Part shown: piece by piece, positions 9,110-37,322 of the stretch
How positions within the stretch are numbered: position 1 is the first letter of the stretch
Layout of the letters: every line of letters begins with the position of its first letter
Virus record (IMG/VR): IMGVR_UViG_3300048598_000519
Span: 1-37,509 of that record
DNA from: a virus
Taxonomy: Duplodnaviria > Caudoviricetes
Reading direction: 5' to 3' (one strand)
DNA length: 37,509 nucleotides
Position numbers and translations under genes: made by a program
The notes under the pieces: generated by a model
What the model was told of the DNA's origin: nothing
The model's input: only the letters and a program-made list of their open reading frames with translations
Database searches by the model: none

Positions 9110-11320
9110 TTACTGCTGCGGTCTGACCAAGGTAACGTTGCCTGGATACCTGTTTTCTCCGAGTTCGTCGTCGTGCATCACTTGGGTCATCAGTCCTGCA
9201 CCTGTTATGGTACCGCCTGCTTTTGTAAATGTTATAGCCCATAAAAACTCATAGTAGGTTGCGTCAGTACCATTTTTCCCTTCTGACCAGCTGATTGTAT
9301 TTCCGGACAGGGTATAGGTATATATCTTTCCCTTGCCCTCGTCTTTAACAGTTCCGCCTGAATCACCGGAAGGCGTCAGCGTAAACTCATTACCTATATC
9401 TGCAACAGCATCATTAAGCCGTATGACGCCTTTACACCACCATGTGCCCGCAAGGTCTGCATTGGTCAATACAGTGTCGATCGTCATATACGCGCATGTG
9501 CCGGTGTCACCGCGTACCACCCGAACAAATACCGGTTCATTTTGAACGGTGATCTGCCAAACGGCGCTGCCTCCGGCTGCAACGTTCTGCGTTGTTTCTC
9601 CAGTCATGCTGTGGGAACCCGTTACTTCGATCTTTACGCTTGTACTTCCGCTCTTGGCATTCGGAATGATTGCTGTGAGGGTAAAATCTTTGGGGCCGCC
9701 GGCGGCAGTTAGATTGACTGCGCTCATATCCAGCAGTTGCTGCAAGGAGTAAGGCTCCAATGCTGGTTTCTGATTCGCGCGCATATCGTTGATGGCCTGC
9801 AGCACCGCTTTGTCCACCTTCAGCAGTTTTCCCCCAATCTCAGGCGGTATCGGCACAGTTTTGCCATCCATCGTTACTTCCTGGTCGGCGCTACCTGTCA
9901 GTAGTGCTTTGATACCCTCGGCGTTCAGTTTGGGATTGATTGCCTGCAGCAGTGCGACGGTGGCCGTGACCTGCGGAGTCGCATAACTGGTTCCGCTGGA
10001 TTTGATAGGATTGCCATCCTTGCCCACGCCTAAAACCAAATCCGTACCCGGCGCTGAAAGCGTTATTTCAGCATCAGCAGTAGCTGCAAAGTTGGAAAAC
10101 TCAGCCCGGCTTCCGTCATTGTTTACAGCACCAACGGTGATTACATTAGGTAGTTTAATTCCCCCAGGATAAAAGTTGTTACCGTCCAGGCCGCCCCTGC
10201 TTTTATCTGCCAACCCTCCATTGCCTGCAGCAGTTACAAATACGACTTTTGGATTTTTCGAGTAAATATATTTGAAGAATTTCTCATAAGCTTTGTTGAT
10301 CCATTGGTTAGTCCTGGGCAAATCCGAACCAAAGGAGCAATTGATAACCGTAGCACCGTTGTCCACCTGCTGCTTCAAATAAACCAGAGATTTTATCGTG
10401 AATGCATATCCTGATGTTGAATACTCGCCTTTCGTGATATCATCTGAACTTGAGAGTGCAGGTTTTATTTCTCTCTCGTTGTCATACAGATTTTTTACGG
10501 AAATGTTCAAATCCTCTCCCAATATGCTTGCAATACCTGTCACGCCGCCGTTTTCAGGATCGGCACCGATGATATGTGTCACAAGCGTACCATGCGACAT
10601 TCCAGCGTGTATTTCTTGCCCATTACTATCAGTTAAAGGAACATTGGTTTTATCTCCATTGAGCTTTATTTTACCGTTCAATTCGTTTGATCCGGTATAG
10701 ATTGAATCGTCCAACATACCAACATTGACCTTGTTTAAGTCAATGCCGCTGGCCTTGATGATTCGCCACGCGTTTTCCATTCCGATCATTTGGTATGATT
10801 TTGAGTTATTAGGATTTTCAAATATTTGATCATTCAGCGGTGAGCAAGGTTTTCCCTCAATATCCATCAGATAGACTTCTGCATTTGGGAACACCAACTC
10901 CACACCGTCCATTACGCGTGCTGCGTCCATCGCGGCAGTCAGTTCCGCTTCTGTAGTAAATGCGGTTTCCAGTTGGTACAGGTTTATGATATCCAGTTCG
11001 CCTACAACAATGCCGCCTATTTGTTTAAGCACACCTGCGGCTGTGTCCCTGTCAACGCCATCTTCAAAGACCACGGCCATCTGATTTACGGCGATATTGC
11101 CCCACTTTTCCGTGGCAACAACGGATTTAGGTTCAGGATCTTTAAATGTCGCAGTTGACGTCGGTACAGGCGTTTTATCAGGCTTCGTGTCAAATCCCCA
11201 AAGATTACCCGCTTTTGATGCATCCGCTTTTGATCCGTCCGCATTAGTAATATCAGCCGAACATGCCAGCAGCGTAAAGATTAAGCATAAAACCAGAACG
11301 AGTGATACTATTTTTTTCAT
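9110..11320 (-). CDS. S8 family (subtilisin-like) serine protease, predicted lipoprotein
   Basis: Lipobox LLAC. Catalytic Asp (VGMLDD), His (HGTLV), oxyanion Asn (AAGNG) and Ser (SGTSYATPQV). Confidence 0.9.
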   Translation of the reverse strand: MKKIVSLVLVLCLIFTLLACSADITNADGSKADASKAGNLWGFDTKPDKTPVPTSTATFKDPEPKSVVATEKWGNIAVNQMAVVFEDGVDRDTAAGVLKQIGGIVVGELDIINLYQLETAFTTEAELTAAMDAARVMDGVELVFPNAEVYLMDIEGKPCSPLNDQIFENPNNSKSYQMIGMENAWRIIKASGIDLNKVNVGMLDDSIYTGSNELNGKIKLNGDKTNVPLTDSNGQEIHAGMSHGTLVTHIIGADPENGGVTGIASILGEDLNISVKNLYDNEREIKPALSSSDDITKGEYSTSGYAFTIKSLVYLKQQVDNGATVINCSFGSDLPRTNQWINKAYEKFFKYIYSKNPKVVFVTAAGNGGLADKSRGGLDGNNFYPGGIKLPNVITVGAVNNDGSRAEFSNFAATADAEITLSAPGTDLVLGVGKDGNPIKSSGTSYATPQVTATVALLQAINPKLNAEGIKALLTGSADQEVTMDGKTVPIPPEIGGKLLKVDKAVLQAINDMRANQKPALEPYSLQQLLDMSAVNLTAAGGPKDFTLTAIIPNAKSGSTSVKIEVTGSHSMTGETTQNVAAGGSAVWQITVQNEPVFVRVVRGDTGTCAYMTIDTVLTNADLAGTWWCKGVIRLNDAVADIGNEFTLTPSGDSGGTVKDEGKGKIYTYTLSGNTISWSEGKNGTDATYYEFLWAITFTKAGGTITGAGLMTQVMHDDELGENRYPGNVTLVRPQQ

Positions 11321-11404
11321 GATTAACCTCCATAATCTTTAGTCAATCTCAAGAGTCCCAATTACGATAAACCGACTATTGATCAAAACCCAATATGTGC
11401 TGTG

Positions 11405-12259
11405 TCAATATGTTTTATCCCCGCTCTTATCATGCACAAGCATTTTCCCATCTTTTATAAATATAAATGTATCCCCTTTTTTTGCGAATTCTTCTGTAAT
11501 TGCGTTATTTTTAAATATAGATTCAGGTTTCACATCTGCTTTCTGTACACTATAGCTTGTAATATTGGTATCGTCAAAAAATCCGCTGATTAAGTCATTA
11601 CCTTTTTGTGCAACTTCATAATATTGAAAAGCATAGCCGGTGCCGGATTTAACATACTCAAAAAACACAATCTCATTGCCCGCTTCATCCAACACCGAAG
11701 TTTGAATTGAATCTGCAGAAACATCATACTCAGCAATAAATTTAAAAGCCTTACCTTCTTTATCGGAATATGTTAAAACATTTTTATTGCCTTCCTTGCC
11801 CAGCTTTACATTCTTCTTACCTAATATGCCAAGGGCTACGGCCGCTCCAGCTTCATCCGTATCAATAATAGTCAAGGGAAGCAATTCCAGATCAATCGTT
11901 GCAACAGATAGAAACGTTAAGGCAAGCAAGCCTAATTCCGGGTTGCTTTGAAATTTTTCTTCGAAGCGTTTATACGCGTTTGCTTTCATTTTAGTATACT
12001 TTTCATAAGAAGCAGCAATTGCTCCCTTAGCGTTTTCTTTATTTGATATTTCCGGGGATACGCTCGAGGCCGTTTGATTGTTTGACTCTAAAGGGCTTTC
12101 AGAGGGGCTCTCGGGTTTGTTCGAATCAAAAAACCCTTTGGAATCGGAAAGTTTTTCAGTTGTTTGTGGTTTTGTGTCCGGCGCTTTCGGCGTGGTGCAA
12201 GCTGTGAGAAAAGCGAATAAAAACAATAATATTAGTCCAATACAAATTGTTTTTTTCAT
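11405..12259 (-). CDS. Lipoprotein of unknown function
   Basis: Signal peptide II with lipobox LTAC, S/P/T-rich linker, AT-rich coding. Confidence 0.8.
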   Translation of the reverse strand: MKKTICIGLILLFLFAFLTACTTPKAPDTKPQTTEKLSDSKGFFDSNKPESPSESPLESNNQTASSVSPEISNKENAKGAIAASYEKYTKMKANAYKRFEEKFQSNPELGLLALTFLSVATIDLELLPLTIIDTDEAGAAVALGILGKKNVKLGKEGNKNVLTYSDKEGKAFKFIAEYDVSADSIQTSVLDEAGNEIVFFEYVKSGTGYAFQYYEVAQKGNDLISGFFDDTNITSYSVQKADVKPESIFKNNAITEEFAKKGDTFIFIKDGKMLVHDKSGDKTY

Positions 12260-22132: not shown

Positions 22133-23707
22133 TCAAATGCTGAGAAGTCCCCTGCTGTCATACACGCTTCCCCCACTGCCGTTCTGATGCCGCAATGCCC
22201 TATCCAAAGCCATGATCGTCGCTACCGCTCCGTCGATCTTCTCAGTGGATTTCTCTTTGTCCGGCTTTATATTCCCTGCCGGGTCGGTCTTTATATAAAT
22301 ATTATCCATCATCCACCGTAATACGGGATGGCCGCTGTGAGCCAGTTTCCCTTCCAGTGTCAGCTTCATCAGCTCCTTTGTGGGCGGCGACATATCCTTG
22401 AATCCCTGGCCAAACGGAACGACAGTAAAACCCAGACCCTCGAGATTCTGCACCATCTGAACAGCACCCCACCGGTCAAACGCGATTTCCCTTATGTTAA
22501 ATTTCGTTCCGAGTTCATCTATAAAGTTTTCGATATAGCCGTAATGTACGACATTACCTTCCGTGGTTTTTAAGAAGCCCTGTTTTTTCCAAACATCATA
22601 CGGTACATGGTCCCGCCGCAACCGAAGGTCAATGTTATCCTCCGGCATCCAGAAGAATGGCAGAATCATATATTTATCATCTTCGTCTACCGGCGGAAAT
22701 ACCAGCACAAAGGCGGTAATGTCTGTCGTTGATGATAGATCCAAACCCCCGTAACAAATACGTCCTCTTATTTCCTCCGGGTTTATAGCAAACGCGCATG
22801 CATCCCACTTCTCCATGGGCATCCAGCGTATGCTTTGCTTCACCCACTGGTTTAATCGGAGCTGACGGAACAGGTTTTCTTCTGCCGGGTTCTGTCGTGC
22901 ACTCTCGCATGCTACCTTTAATTTTTCTATATCGACCGTTACCCCAAGGCTGGGATTAGTCGCACACCATACATCCGGGCTTGTCCAGTCCGCGTCGTCC
23001 GGAGCGCTGTAGATCACCGGATAAAACGTAGGATCGATTTTTCTTCCTTTTAATATATCCTCCGCCTTTTGGTGTACTTCCCAACAGATGGAATTTCTGT
23101 CCGTACCCGCTGTTGTGATGATAAAAGTCAGCGGCTGTTTTCTGGCGTCCCCGGCGCCATGCGTCATAACATCATAAAGCTGGCGGTTGGGCTGTGCGTG
23201 CAGCTCATCCATCACCACGCCGTGCACATTCAGCCCGTGTTTAGTATACGCTTCAGCCGATAGCACCTGATAGAAACTCCCTAGCGGTTTGTATACCAAC
23301 CGTTTTTGGGAGAGTATCGGCTTGATGCGGCTTTTTAGTGCCGGGCATTGCTCCACCATCTGCACCGCAACGTCGAACACAATGGACGCCTGCTGCCGGT
23401 CCGAAGCACAACCGTATATCTCTCCGCCGTACTCCATATCCCCGCAGGTAAGAAAAAGCGCTACCGCTGCGGCGAGTTCGGATTTACCCTGTTTCTTTGG
23501 AATTTCTATATACGCCGTGTTGTATTGCCGGTATCCGTTAGGCTTCATCCAGCCGAACAGATCGCGTATGATATTTTCCTGCCAGCCGATCAGTTGGAAT
23601 GGCTTTCCGTACCATTCGCCTTTGGTGTGTTTGAGTTCATTGATAAAGGCGACCGCATAGGCCGCCTTATATTCATCCAGGTATGTTGTTGTTCTTTTCC
23701 TGCCAAT
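22133..23707 (-). CDS. terL: Terminase large subunit
   Basis: Walker A IPKKQGKS, Walker B VVMDELH, nuclease GLDLS and KIDG. The frame stays open and terminase-like (HTKGEW..KPFQLIGWQ) for 53 codons upstream of ATG 23548, back to an ATT after SD GAGGGG. Start uncertain. Confidence 0.92.
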   Translation of the reverse strand: MGRKRTTTYLDEYKAAYAVAFINELKHTKGEWYGKPFQLIGWQENIIRDLFGWMKPNGYRQYNTAYIEIPKKQGKSELAAAVALFLTCGDMEYGGEIYGCASDRQQASIVFDVAVQMVEQCPALKSRIKPILSQKRLVYKPLGSFYQVLSAEAYTKHGLNVHGVVMDELHAQPNRQLYDVMTHGAGDARKQPLTFIITTAGTDRNSICWEVHQKAEDILKGRKIDPTFYPVIYSAPDDADWTSPDVWCATNPSLGVTVDIEKLKVACESARQNPAEENLFRQLRLNQWVKQSIRWMPMEKWDACAFAINPEEIRGRICYGGLDLSSTTDITAFVLVFPPVDEDDKYMILPFFWMPEDNIDLRLRRDHVPYDVWKKQGFLKTTEGNVVHYGYIENFIDELGTKFNIREIAFDRWGAVQMVQNLEGLGFTVVPFGQGFKDMSPPTKELMKLTLEGKLAHSGHPVLRWMMDNIYIKTDPAGNIKPDKEKSTEKIDGAVATIMALDRALRHQNGSGGSVYDSRGLLSI

Positions 23708-23796: not shown

Positions 23797-24006
23797 TTAC
23801 CAGCTTCTTCCCCCGCCGTTTTCACCGCGGTTGCCACCGTAACCGCCGCCTCCGCCGCCGCGTCTTTGCTGTTTCTTGGCTCTTCTGCATTCCGGGCAGC
23901 GCTGCGGTTCGTTCTCAAATCCTTTTTCCTTGTAGAAAGCCTGTTCACCTTCGGTGAATATGAATTCCTTGTTGCAGTCCTTACATACTAATGGTTTGTC
24001 GGGCAT
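23797..24006 (-). CDS. Zinc-ribbon protein (zf-trcl-like) with Gly/Arg-rich tail
   Basis: CKDC..EFIFTEGEQAFYKEKGFENEPQRCPECR plus RRGGGGGGYGG; AAGGAG SD. Confidence 0.85.
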   Translation of the reverse strand: MPDKPLVCKDCNKEFIFTEGEQAFYKEKGFENEPQRCPECRRAKKQQRRGGGGGGYGGNRGENGGGRSW

Positions 24007-29774: not shown

Positions 29775-30893
29775 TTAAGAAATTATTTGTTTTTTGTAAT
29801 TATCAAGATAATCAGTCCATCGCCCTTCATCTTGCTGGTTTTTAGTTTCCCAATCAATAATGAAACCCTCTGTTGAATCCTGTTTCAATGAATTACATAT
29901 TCTATGCGCAAGCTGGCAATTAGTCGCTTCATGCGTTCCGCCTTGTGATAGAGGGATAATATGATCGATCGTTGCTGCCCAAATATTAAAAGGATCTTTA
30001 TCATATGGAACAGGCATACCGCAGATACCGCATATTCCTTTATCGCGTCTAAAAATCTTTTTAAAATAAACCGGTTCCTTATATGCCAAACGCATTTGCT
30101 CTTTTCGTCGCTGCTTATACCCACGGTTAACATATTTTTCCTGACATTCAATTGAACAGAAAGAACTAAACGGCTTACCACATTCAGTTACTACACTGGT
30201 TCCGCATTCTTTACATTTAAAGTTTATGGGAACAAATTCTTCTGCCCATTTGTTGCGTTTATCTCTTAGACTTCCACAATATGAACATTGCTTTGAACAA
30301 TATTTTTTATATGAGTAGGTAGTAATAAATGATTTTCCGCACCATAAGCACAGTTTTTGAAGCTTTTTTTTAGCTGCCCTTTCTTCAAGTATTGCAGCCG
30401 GTATACGATTCGCAGCATATGCACATGCTGTAGAACAATATTTCATCCGGTAGGCATTTTCTTTTGAGAAAATTTTTCCGCAATACCGGCAGGTGTAGTA
30501 TTTTTTCTGTGTTTCGTGTCCTTGTTTGCGTCCACATTCTTGCGAGCAAGTTTTTTGATTCTTTTTCTTTGTAGTAAAAACAATACCGCACTGTACGCAT
30601 TTTTTCTCGTATACAGGGCGACTTTCATCATTCGCCAGTTTTTTGCATTGATCTGAGCAATACTTCGTTTTCCTGCTGTAGCTTTCAAATAATTTATTAC
30701 AATGCTTGCATCTTAAACTTTTTAGCTCTTTTGGATGTTCTAATTGATACTTTTTTCGCTCGTATATATATTTGCATTCTTTAGAGCAAAACTTAGCCGG
30801 ACGGCCGGTTCCCTTCCTAAGAAAGCTTTTACCACATTTTTGGCAAATAAGCATTTCTACCTTTAACGAAACTCTTTTCCCGCCTCGACCCAT
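29775..30893 (-). CDS. HNH endonuclease with six tandem C4 zinc-finger repeats
   Basis: Six CxxC...CSxxC units, then RDKGICGICG...IDHIIPLSQGGTH...AHRICN. ATG 30893 after GGAGG. Confidence 0.85.
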   Translation of the reverse strand: MGRGGKRVSLKVEMLICQKCGKSFLRKGTGRPAKFCSKECKYIYERKKYQLEHPKELKSLRCKHCNKLFESYSRKTKYCSDQCKKLANDESRPVYEKKCVQCGIVFTTKKKNQKTCSQECGRKQGHETQKKYYTCRYCGKIFSKENAYRMKYCSTACAYAANRIPAAILEERAAKKKLQKLCLWCGKSFITTYSYKKYCSKQCSYCGSLRDKRNKWAEEFVPINFKCKECGTSVVTECGKPFSSFCSIECQEKYVNRGYKQRRKEQMRLAYKEPVYFKKIFRRDKGICGICGMPVPYDKDPFNIWAATIDHIIPLSQGGTHEATNCQLAHRICNSLKQDSTEGFIIDWETKNQQDEGRWTDYLDNYKKQIIS

Positions 30894-30907
30894 GCTATCC
30901 TCCAAAT

Positions 30908-35859: not shown

Positions 35860-37322
35860 TTATCTCCTCCTTTCAAACGGATTGAGACCTTTTCTGTAAT
35901 CATCCACCAGCGCCCATGCCAGATCGGCTTTGTCCCGCAATGCGCCAAGTACCTTCTCATCCACGGTTCCTCTGGCAGTCAGGTAGATATATGTACAGTT
36001 GTGTTTTTGCCCGACCCGGTGGATGCGGGCCTTCGTCTGCTCGAAATTGGACATCGAGTAATCAAGGCTGTAGAACACCATGGTACTGGCCGCGGTCAGT
36101 GTGATTCCCAGACCCGCCGTTGCGATCTGCCCTACAAATACCTGCACACCGGGATCGTTCTGAAACTTTTCCACCTCATTGGCCCGGTCTTTTACGTCGC
36201 CGGTTATGAGCGAGTACCGTATATCTCTCTTTTCAAGCATCCCGCAGATGACGTTGATCTCCGGAATAAACCGGGCGATGACCACCAGTTTTTTGCCTTC
36301 CTGCAAAACCTCCTCGACGATATCCTCAAGCGCATCCTGTTTGGCTGTGCTCACCCGCTGGGGGTTATCACAGCCGTCATTTCCGATAAACCCACCTGTC
36401 AGCTGCGACAATCGCAGCAGTTTGGTCAGTATGTTCGTCACCGTCACCTCGCCTTTGCCGAGCTCGGCATAGCTTTCCTTCACCAGATTGTTGTAGATCC
36501 TCGATGCTGCGGGTTCCAGCTCAACATACCGGATGATATCCATGGTTTCCGGCAGATCCAGGCATTCAGCCTTTGTAGCCCGGTACGCAATGCTGTGCAA
36601 CTTGCGCATGAGCTCCTGCTCCGTCGTTGTTTTAAGCACCGGCGTATAGTTCCCGTATCCCGTCATATCAAAATACCGGTTGCGGAATACATAAAAACTT
36701 TGTCCGAAGATAGCTGGGTTTACGAACTTGTACTGGCTGAATACATCGATAGCTTTGTTTGTGATGACCGTTCCGGTTAACAGCAGCTTGTACCGCGCCT
36801 TCGCGCCCAGCCGGTACATCGCCTTGGATGCCGCGATGTTATGAGTTTTGATTTTATGGCCTTCATCACAGATAATCAGATCCGGATTCCATGAAACCAG
36901 TTCTTTCTCCATCCGCCACGCGCTTTCATAGTTTACGACCGCAACCTGTAACGACGATCCCTGAAGATGCCTTAGGGTATCCGCCTTCTTCGCCATGCTG
37001 CCGGAAAGCACTGCCAGCGTATAATCGTAATCCGCGAACTTCGCAAACTCCTCCTGCCAGACGCCGAGGATGGACAGCGGTGCAACCACCAGTATCTTTT
37101 TGATCTTGCCGCTTCGATAAAGTGCTCCGGCAACTGCAATGCTGGTAATGGTTTTTCCTGTACCTATGGCTACATTTCCATAAGTAAAGCCACACCCGGG
37201 CTGCTTATGGAAAGTTCGTCATCACCCCCCTGCCGCAGGCCGAAGAGCCTGCAGACAAAATTGAATGCTTCTGTCTGATGCCTGTATGGCGTTCCCCGGA
37301 CGGGCATCCTTTTTTCATTCAT
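35860..37322 (-). CDS. SNF2-type DEXH helicase, split at Walker A by an 8-nt insert (37165-37172)
   Basis: ORF1 37322-37170 (50 aa, PYRHQ...LLMEM-stop). A second frame runs from 37164 (GTGKT...DEGH...LTGT...AGLGITL...RIHRVGQ) for 434 aa with no other lesion. Confidence 0.85.
37165..37254 (-). other. Candidate recoding (translational bypass) element
   Basis: ATG-TAG-CC-ATA-GGT with a 10-bp perfect stem (37175-37184/37204-37213), a 7-bp alternative pairing to the insert, and an upstream 9-bp hairpin (37233-37254). Confidence 0.5.

Follow-up and report, generated by a model that had tools for sequence, protein, structure and literature searches.

Interrupted helicase gene

Can a prophage gene that is broken by a stop codon inside the Walker A motif of its product still yield one complete protein, and where did such a break come from? 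The stretch of viral DNA analyzed here (37,509 nucleotides, hereafter the window) raises this question in its single SNF2 helicase gene. On the minus strand, Walker A of this gene reads CTT ATG GAA ATG TAG CC ATA GGT ACA GGA AAA ACC, with eight extra nucleotides within the coding sequence of the motif. The first-pass annotation of this DNA had described a stop-bearing 8-nt insert that splits Walker A, and the minus-strand sequence confirms it. The frame beyond the insert begins with GTGKT, stays open through to its end and, by domain profiles, matches SNF2-rel_dom (from profile position 27) and Helicase_C. When the two disjoint frames are joined they give one conserved protein (Table 1).

An assembly error was ruled out as the source of the insert because the same 8-nt string recurs in seven loci, the window included, and in a public contig from sludge run X1. 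The latter is a single low-depth contig (289 nt, depth 2.7) and not raw reads; it carries the identical insert and differs by one substitution in 231 nt, with no alignment gap.

Table 1. Features of the interrupted helicase gene in the window.
Feature	Coordinates	Strand	Basis
Helicase 5' piece, 50 aa: PYxHQ motif, linker, ...VALLMEM, then TAG	37170..37322	-	ORF
Helicase 3' piece, 434 aa; resume codon GGT at 37162-37164	35860..37164	-	ORF, domains
Putative take-off codon ATG, the second M of MEM	37173..37175	-	sequence; M-type class
8-nt coding gap TAG-CC-ATA: A-site stop 37170-37172, putative landing triplet ATA 37165-37167	37165..37172	-	sequence
Conserved stem, 5' arm UUUCCAUAAG	37204..37213	-	
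Conserved stem, 3' arm CUUAUGGAAA, ending at the take-off codon	37175..37184	-	
SD-like tract GGGGGGTGATG, G-rich; putative scar of a deleted HNH gene, read through as GGD	37220..37230	-	
9-bp hairpin; present in the window, no conserved part of the element	37233..37254	-	

The window is a prophage, in which domain profiles identify terminase, portal, capsid and tail genes and two serine recombinase genes. The open frame of the terminase large subunit (22133-23707, minus strand) reaches far beyond its first ATG (23548) in the 5' direction, and the sole start-like codon behind an SD sequence (GAGGGG) is an ATT at about 23707; a TTG lies one base off, in another frame. This gene has either a non-canonical start or a 1-nt shift. 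Among the short genes just upstream of it, one at 23797-24006 (minus strand) encodes a small protein with two CxxC motifs and a Gly-rich tail and is probably a moron. A subtilase (Peptidase_S8, 736 aa) and a lipoprotein-like gene occupy 9110-12259 (minus strand), between an 872-aa tail-region gene and a distal tail gene.

Gaps in related helicases

Protein-similarity searches returned 160 related loci, ten of which were too short upstream. The 150 usable relatives, picked by protein similarity alone and counted without deduplication, comprise 97 intact and 53 gapped genes; 52 of the latter have the gap after MEM or MEMG and one (L029) has it after ME. The insert is thus neither unique nor surrounded by uninterrupted homologues, the situation that the first-pass annotation had named as speaking against its reading. 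Pattern scans for gaps, in which the metagenome scan covered 34 of 64 parts, added at least 176 further loci; 37 of the 176 pattern matches were excluded for want of a helicase match, although three of these resemble true short-contig cases.

Combining both sources, we count at least 107 different junction contexts that contain a gap; the gap lengths are 4, 5, 6, 7, 8, 9, 10, 11, and 16 nt. Among the 107 contexts listed, 41, 22, and 44 gaps fall in frames 0, 1, and 2, respectively, and therefore neither readthrough nor a fixed frameshift fits all of them. The site at which the gap opens also varies, being after E, M, G or T. The T-type gap is a single case among the matches listed (L336, from the metagenome scan), and scans of viral contigs for T-type gaps and for gaps following the second G both gave no match. 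Three loci with an M-type site (L280, L322, and L328) read CCA GCC GGA TAG GA/GC after MEM; there, take-off could be from the later GGA, which would add Pro-Ala to Walker A, instead of from ATG. Nearly all named relatives are from Bacillota; cultured carriers include L159 and L101, from genomes of Acetanaerobacterium elongatum and Anaerotaenia torta. The annotated collection holds no cultured phage with more than 50% identity.

Putative take-off and landing codons

Among the matches listed, take-off codon plus gap make up 57 distinct strings: 14 with the gap after the second Met, 42 after Gly, and one after Thr. The last triplet before the resume codon (the landing triplet) pairs like the take-off codon at two or more of three positions in all 57, and the match is full in 26 (C/U wobble counted). 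Triplets shifted by 1, 2, and 3 nt further 5' pair in this way in only 1/57, 0/56, and 0/50 strings, and the chance of such pairing is 0.16-0.25 per triplet. The A site holds a stop in 50 of the 57 strings, with TAG, TGA, and TAA all represented, and CCA, CAA or CGA in the other seven; some of the CCA-type strings are readable with a later take-off. In the window, UAG occupies the A site and the landing codon ATA agrees with ATG at two of three positions, with one mismatch. These strings are kin (clustering the upstream 36 nt at 80% identity gives 31 groups), and p-values derived from them therefore overstate independence.

A Gly-like landing triplet could be an old Gly codon, and we therefore examined its variation. 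In the Gly class, the second position of the landing triplet is G in 42/42 strings and the first position differs in 14/42. At the third position, the landing triplet follows the take-off codon in wobble class (Y/Y 34, R/R 5, Y/R 3; Fisher p = 7e-5, with non-independent strings). In L241, the in-frame landing triplet behind a GGA take-off codon is TGA, giving two in-frame stops, so the landing triplet is not decoded there. We infer that the Gly-class pattern and L241 reflect neither a decoded codon nor free drift; both fit re-pairing of a retained tRNA. The M-type strings never land on an exact ATG (0/14), and all 14 of their triplets are drawn from ATA, ATC, ATT, CTG, TTG, and ACG, which are near-cognate start codons. 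The bypass reading does not account for this pattern.

A scan for gaps opening one codon earlier served as a test on unseen data. It gave six matches, one of them an intact gene matched by chance and five of them Glu-type gaps: GAA-AGAA, GAG-TGAG (twice), GAA-TAGAG, and GAA-TAGAC, with landing triplets GAA, GAG, GAG, GAG, and GAC. All five are re-pairable at two or more positions, and the landing triplets thus follow the take-off codon in all four registers. One relative, about 89% identical overall and represented by loose contig ends from runs X2, X3, and X4, breaks the rule: it has a 5-nt gap whose last triplet, GCG, matches ATG at one of three positions. In this relative, 48 nt spanning the stop and both stem arms are unchanged.

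RNA structure upstream of the gap

The 10-bp stem that the first-pass annotation had placed directly before the take-off codon is real in the window, and it covaries in relatives. The 141-nt region of the window taken alone folds no better than expected by chance (z = -1.18; equally good folds in 20 of 200 shuffles), and the significance of the stem comes from relatives and not from the window sequence alone. In 100/105 gapped vs. 20/85 intact contexts, the ATGG of MEM can form a helix of at least 6 bp with a segment 35-45 nt upstream. The 3' end of this helix coincides with the start of the take-off codon in 16/31 M-type and 44/68 G-type contexts, and in four of five E-type loci the predicted stem has moved upstream along with the gap.

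RNAalifold recovers the stem from 17 M-type sequences of the same register. Two synonymous positions in these sequences carry compensatory pairs (CG 11/UA 6 at one; AU 7/CG 3/GC 3/UA 1 at the other), no shuffle out of 500 reaches the observed covariation, and slid controls are about 40-47% paired vs. 83% for the stem; the subset was picked by register, and the covariation test is therefore partly circular. Run over all 29 M-type sequences, RNAalifold finds no consensus structure because two registers are mixed, but the stem, when given, still beats shuffles and slid controls on all 29. Conserved mRNA structure is therefore present at the take-off site.

The other elements proposed earlier fared unevenly. 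The SD-like tract just 5' of the stem is present, as is the 9-bp hairpin; neither this hairpin nor a 3' barrier stem is enriched among gapped alleles, and in carriers of the HNH gene described below the hairpin site lies about 450 nt away from the gap. The suggested alternative pairing UGUGGCU/AGCCAUA is absent from the minimum-energy folds that we ran. We also considered a competing fold, a hairpin spanning the gap (UACUUAUGG/CCAUAGGUA; -9.8 kcal/mol for the window sequence), and rejected it as a family feature, since it is strong only in the window and in L190.

Association with an HNH endonuclease gene

Many gapped relatives contain an HNH_3 gene between the PYxHQ motif and MEM (41/102 gapped vs. 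3/84 intact contexts). The gene is inserted 13-17 codons upstream of the gap site and splits the helicase: the N-terminal helicase piece continues out of frame into the HNH gene, and in 42 of the 44 carriers a frame of 13-17 codons that ends in MEM begins at a new start codon with a new SD before it. The SD-like tract is the ribosome-binding site of this restarted helicase piece in the same 42 carriers. It occurs in 96/102 gapped vs. 8/84 intact contexts, and gapped alleles without the HNH gene keep it. The linker from PYxHQ to MEM is at least 108 nt in 49/49 rejoined gapped alleles and at most 105 nt in 79/80 intact ones; the window, with a linker of 117 nt, is a rejoined gapped allele.

Gapped and intact alleles are interleaved on the helicase tree, a FastTree estimate with many weak nodes, and identical gap strings occur on distant branches, as expected of a mobile cassette. 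The five closest viral relatives of the cassette HNH (at least 56% identity over most of the length) are on contigs already found via the helicase. In three loci (L001, L055, and L080) the helicase is split by the HNH gene with neither gap nor conserved stem, and the gap is therefore not obligatory for carrying the gene. L118 has a deletion scar and a 6-bp remnant stem with no gap. In ten further loci (L069, L073, L126, L127, L137, L174, L222, L224, L295, and L336) the HNH gene is lost or reduced and the N-terminal piece is not rejoined in frame; most of them keep the separate SD and ATG start, so the break in the helicase before Walker A persists.

No relative of the cassette HNH is encoded in the window. 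A 376-aa HNH protein with many CxxC repeats is encoded at 29775-30905 (minus strand), between a terminase-linked HNH gene and the small terminase gene, and is unrelated to the cassette HNH.

The gap thus likely belongs to an HNH homing-endonuclease cassette of which this phage appears to have lost the gene and kept the scar. From the association with the HNH gene, the scatter on the tree, and the T4 precedent, we infer that the HNH enzyme cuts the intact allele and that the gap blocks cutting; a gap that protects its carrier from its own endonuclease has been reported for MobA (10.1101/2022.08.31.505936). On this scheme, the HNH_3 gene would insert 13-17 codons upstream and split the helicase, bringing with it a new SD and ATG as well as a gap that spoils the site, within conserved Walker A DNA, at which its enzyme cuts. 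The cassette would then spread between phages. In the lineage of the window, the HNH gene may have been deleted between two SD-like repeats, which would have rejoined the N-terminus and left the gap behind as the surviving self-protection part of the cassette.

Selection on gapped helicases

Substitution patterns indicate that gapped helicases stay under purifying selection. The median dN/dS of the 3' piece is 0.089 in gapped alleles (25 usable of 46 pairs) vs. 0.077 in intact ones (39 of 56), and that of the 5' piece in joined gapped alleles is 0.15 (20 of 50). For closely related pairs with the same gap class (L045/L048, L126/L127, L059/L067, and L165/L209) dN/dS is 0.04-0.06. For the 3' piece of the window against its nearest intact relative, L004, dN is 0.136 and dS 1.44. 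A downstream frame of at least 415 codons is retained by 87/96 gapped loci vs. 90/91 intact loci, the intact set being selected by best score. The frame is shortened in 9/96 vs. 1/91; several of the nine shortened gapped loci look like contig joins, assembly indels or indel-rich contigs, and one has a clear nonsense codon.

Proposed mechanism and alternative explanations

Judged from these sequence comparisons, the gap in the window is likely a site of programmed ribosomal bypass tied to a homing-endonuclease cassette, like that of T4 mobA/gene 60 but far shorter. A ribosome that reaches the ATG would have UAG in its A site and pause, and the peptidyl-tRNA-Met would unpair from ATG. The stem UUUCCAUAAG/CUUAUGGAAA, with its 3' arm inside the ribosome by then, would zip up behind and drive the ribosome forward. 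The tRNA would re-pair with AUA at two of three positions, and GGU would be decoded next, yielding ...LLMEMGTGKT and one full-length helicase. A motor role for the 5' stem is the T4 model (PMC5009743; 10.1101/2024.12.09.627546).

The first-pass annotation had likewise favored programmed bypass over a random pseudogenizing insertion, and the traits by which it proposed to recognize one are all found in the relatives: a stop recurring after the take-off codon, a near-matching landing codon, a covarying stem, and dN/dS below 1 on both sides of the gap. Its further idea of a recoding switch that controls helicase output is not supported: all three stop codons occur, and neither the competing fold nor the 5' hairpin is conserved in the family.

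The main rival for the window allele is a split enzyme, in which translation would stop at UAG and re-initiate at the near-cognate AUA to give M-GTGKT..., and the two pieces would assemble. This would account for the near-cognate character of every M-type landing triplet (14/14). In E-type gaps, the resume codon is an ATG directly after the stop, which plain re-initiation could use, and enzymes that are split by endonucleases and reassemble do exist (MobA, MobE; 10.1101/2022.08.31.505936). We nevertheless regard it as unlikely. None of 71 landing triplets in the largest class, the G-type, is start-like, so this class cannot restart, yet the site, stem, and HNH gene are common to it. Moreover, the pre-gap piece in HNH carriers would be a peptide of 13-17 residues holding the strand that leads into the P-loop, and the landing triplets follow the take-off codon in all four registers. 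Removal of the gap before translation, either from RNA as a micro-intron or from DNA by excision on induction, would restore the exact motif, and the conserved stem flanks the gap. It is, however, a highly improbable reading: the gap ends are not conserved, the site shifts by whole codons, the matching obeys tRNA wobble rules and not exact repeats, no Rfam family matches in the window, and the DNA contigs examined, few and therefore weak evidence, contain no joint at the site.

Repeated repair scars at an endonuclease cut site could instead have inactivated a dispensable helicase. The site is a likely homing target, a further break is present in nine of the 96 gapped loci, and the window is a prophage with serine recombinases. 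Against a pseudogene stand the compensatory changes in the stem, the codon match in every one of the 57 strings, the 87 intact downstream frames, and the low dN/dS in close pairs of one gap class; decay of this kind is strongly disfavored, and we hold it to be very improbable. Least credible of all is an allele-specific frameshift or stop readthrough that adds residues to Walker A. It would suit the 41 of 107 contexts that are in frame and gaps of 4-5 nt, which are readable as +1 or -1 shifts. The window gap, however, is out of frame and opens with a stop, L241 has two in-frame stops, and a conserved slippery run is lacking. In the 97 intact relatives MEM is never separated from GTGK by an additional residue, though nearly all 6- and 9-nt gaps hold a stop.

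Implications and comparison with known bypass systems

For T4 gene 60 with its homologues and for the mitochondria of Magnusiomyces, natural programmed bypassing is described as established, and for the terminase of Streptomyces phage Hau3 as supported. Bonocora et al. 2011 is said to be the original paper on MobA homing. Within the open full-text literature we found no paper on bypass in a phage SNF2 helicase. The gaps reported here rather probably represent a second family of bypass cassettes with a homing endonuclease, which evolved independently and is common among prophages of Clostridia. In such a cassette, a stop and one short stem that ends at the take-off codon would suffice for hops of 4-16 nt from any of four codons, even where re-pairing is limited to two of three positions and a long nascent-peptide signal is lacking; it would be a natural, minimal, and mobile hopping module. 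If so, the combination of endonuclease and bypass evolved again in another gene and phylum, and many seemingly pseudogenized prophage helicases are probably working genes. Differing naturally in the length of the gap, the take-off tRNA, and the mismatch at landing, the roughly 60 variants could be used to test whether bypass is driven by an mRNA stem that forms behind the ribosome, and how much re-pairing is required for landing.

The helicase element appears to work like the T4 mobA/gene 60 element. In both, the gene of a conserved enzyme is split by an HNH gene, which brings a new start and a short N-terminal extension; this is seen in relatives of the window, whereas the window itself has only the scar. 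In both, a coding gap with a take-off codon, a stop or slow codon, and a landing codon lies just downstream in a conserved motif (10.1101/2022.08.31.505936; PMC5009743). As described for T4, the take-off codon can move by one codon, there is a 5' RNA stem, the gap often outlasts the endonuclease, and carriers are scattered among non-carriers. The available text of Manning and Atkins terms the T4 cassette unique (10.1101/2022.08.31.505936). The helicase element would be no member of it because of its host gene, its gap length, the lack of a take-off stem-loop within the gap, its four take-off residues, and its short nascent chain. The host gene here is an SNF2 helicase (Walker A, relatives in Bacillota genomes) and not the topoisomerase large subunit of T4-like phages, and the gap is 4-16 nt vs. 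about 50 nt in T4 gene 60. The take-off stem-loop and the SD inside the gap are T4 features that are not conserved in helicase gaps. Helicase gaps, unlike T4, have E, M, G or T as take-off residue, a landing that often matches at only two of three positions, and a stem that ends right at the take-off codon. With 13-17 codons before take-off, HNH carriers leave no room for a nascent-peptide signal of the T4 kind, which lies 25-30 residues back. Compared by Pfam family and length only, the cassette HNH_3 (about 145-180 aa) is also smaller than MobA (269-279 aa).

Other systems share single traits. Synthetic stop-hops in E. coli and the byps of Magnusiomyces mitochondria likewise hop over a stop or unused codon, and byps tolerate two-of-three re-pairing (PMC5009743). 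Stop-hops are artificial, however, with no natural in-frame case known to that 2016 review in its available text, and byps are 27-55 nt long, mitochondrial, and context-independent (PMC5009743). The Hau3 terminase, for which the junction peptide was shown in E. coli, has a short gap of 7-10 nt in a conserved phage motif and a slow A-site codon, and a 5' stem and SD are proposed there as well (PMC10732093). It differs in that its trigger is a rare UUA codon, whereas the A site here mostly holds a stop of any kind, and in that its bypass is proposed to be regulatory, with no homing endonuclease described in the available text of the paper (PMC10732093). In size, the helicase gap is closer to the Hau3 terminase case than to T4.
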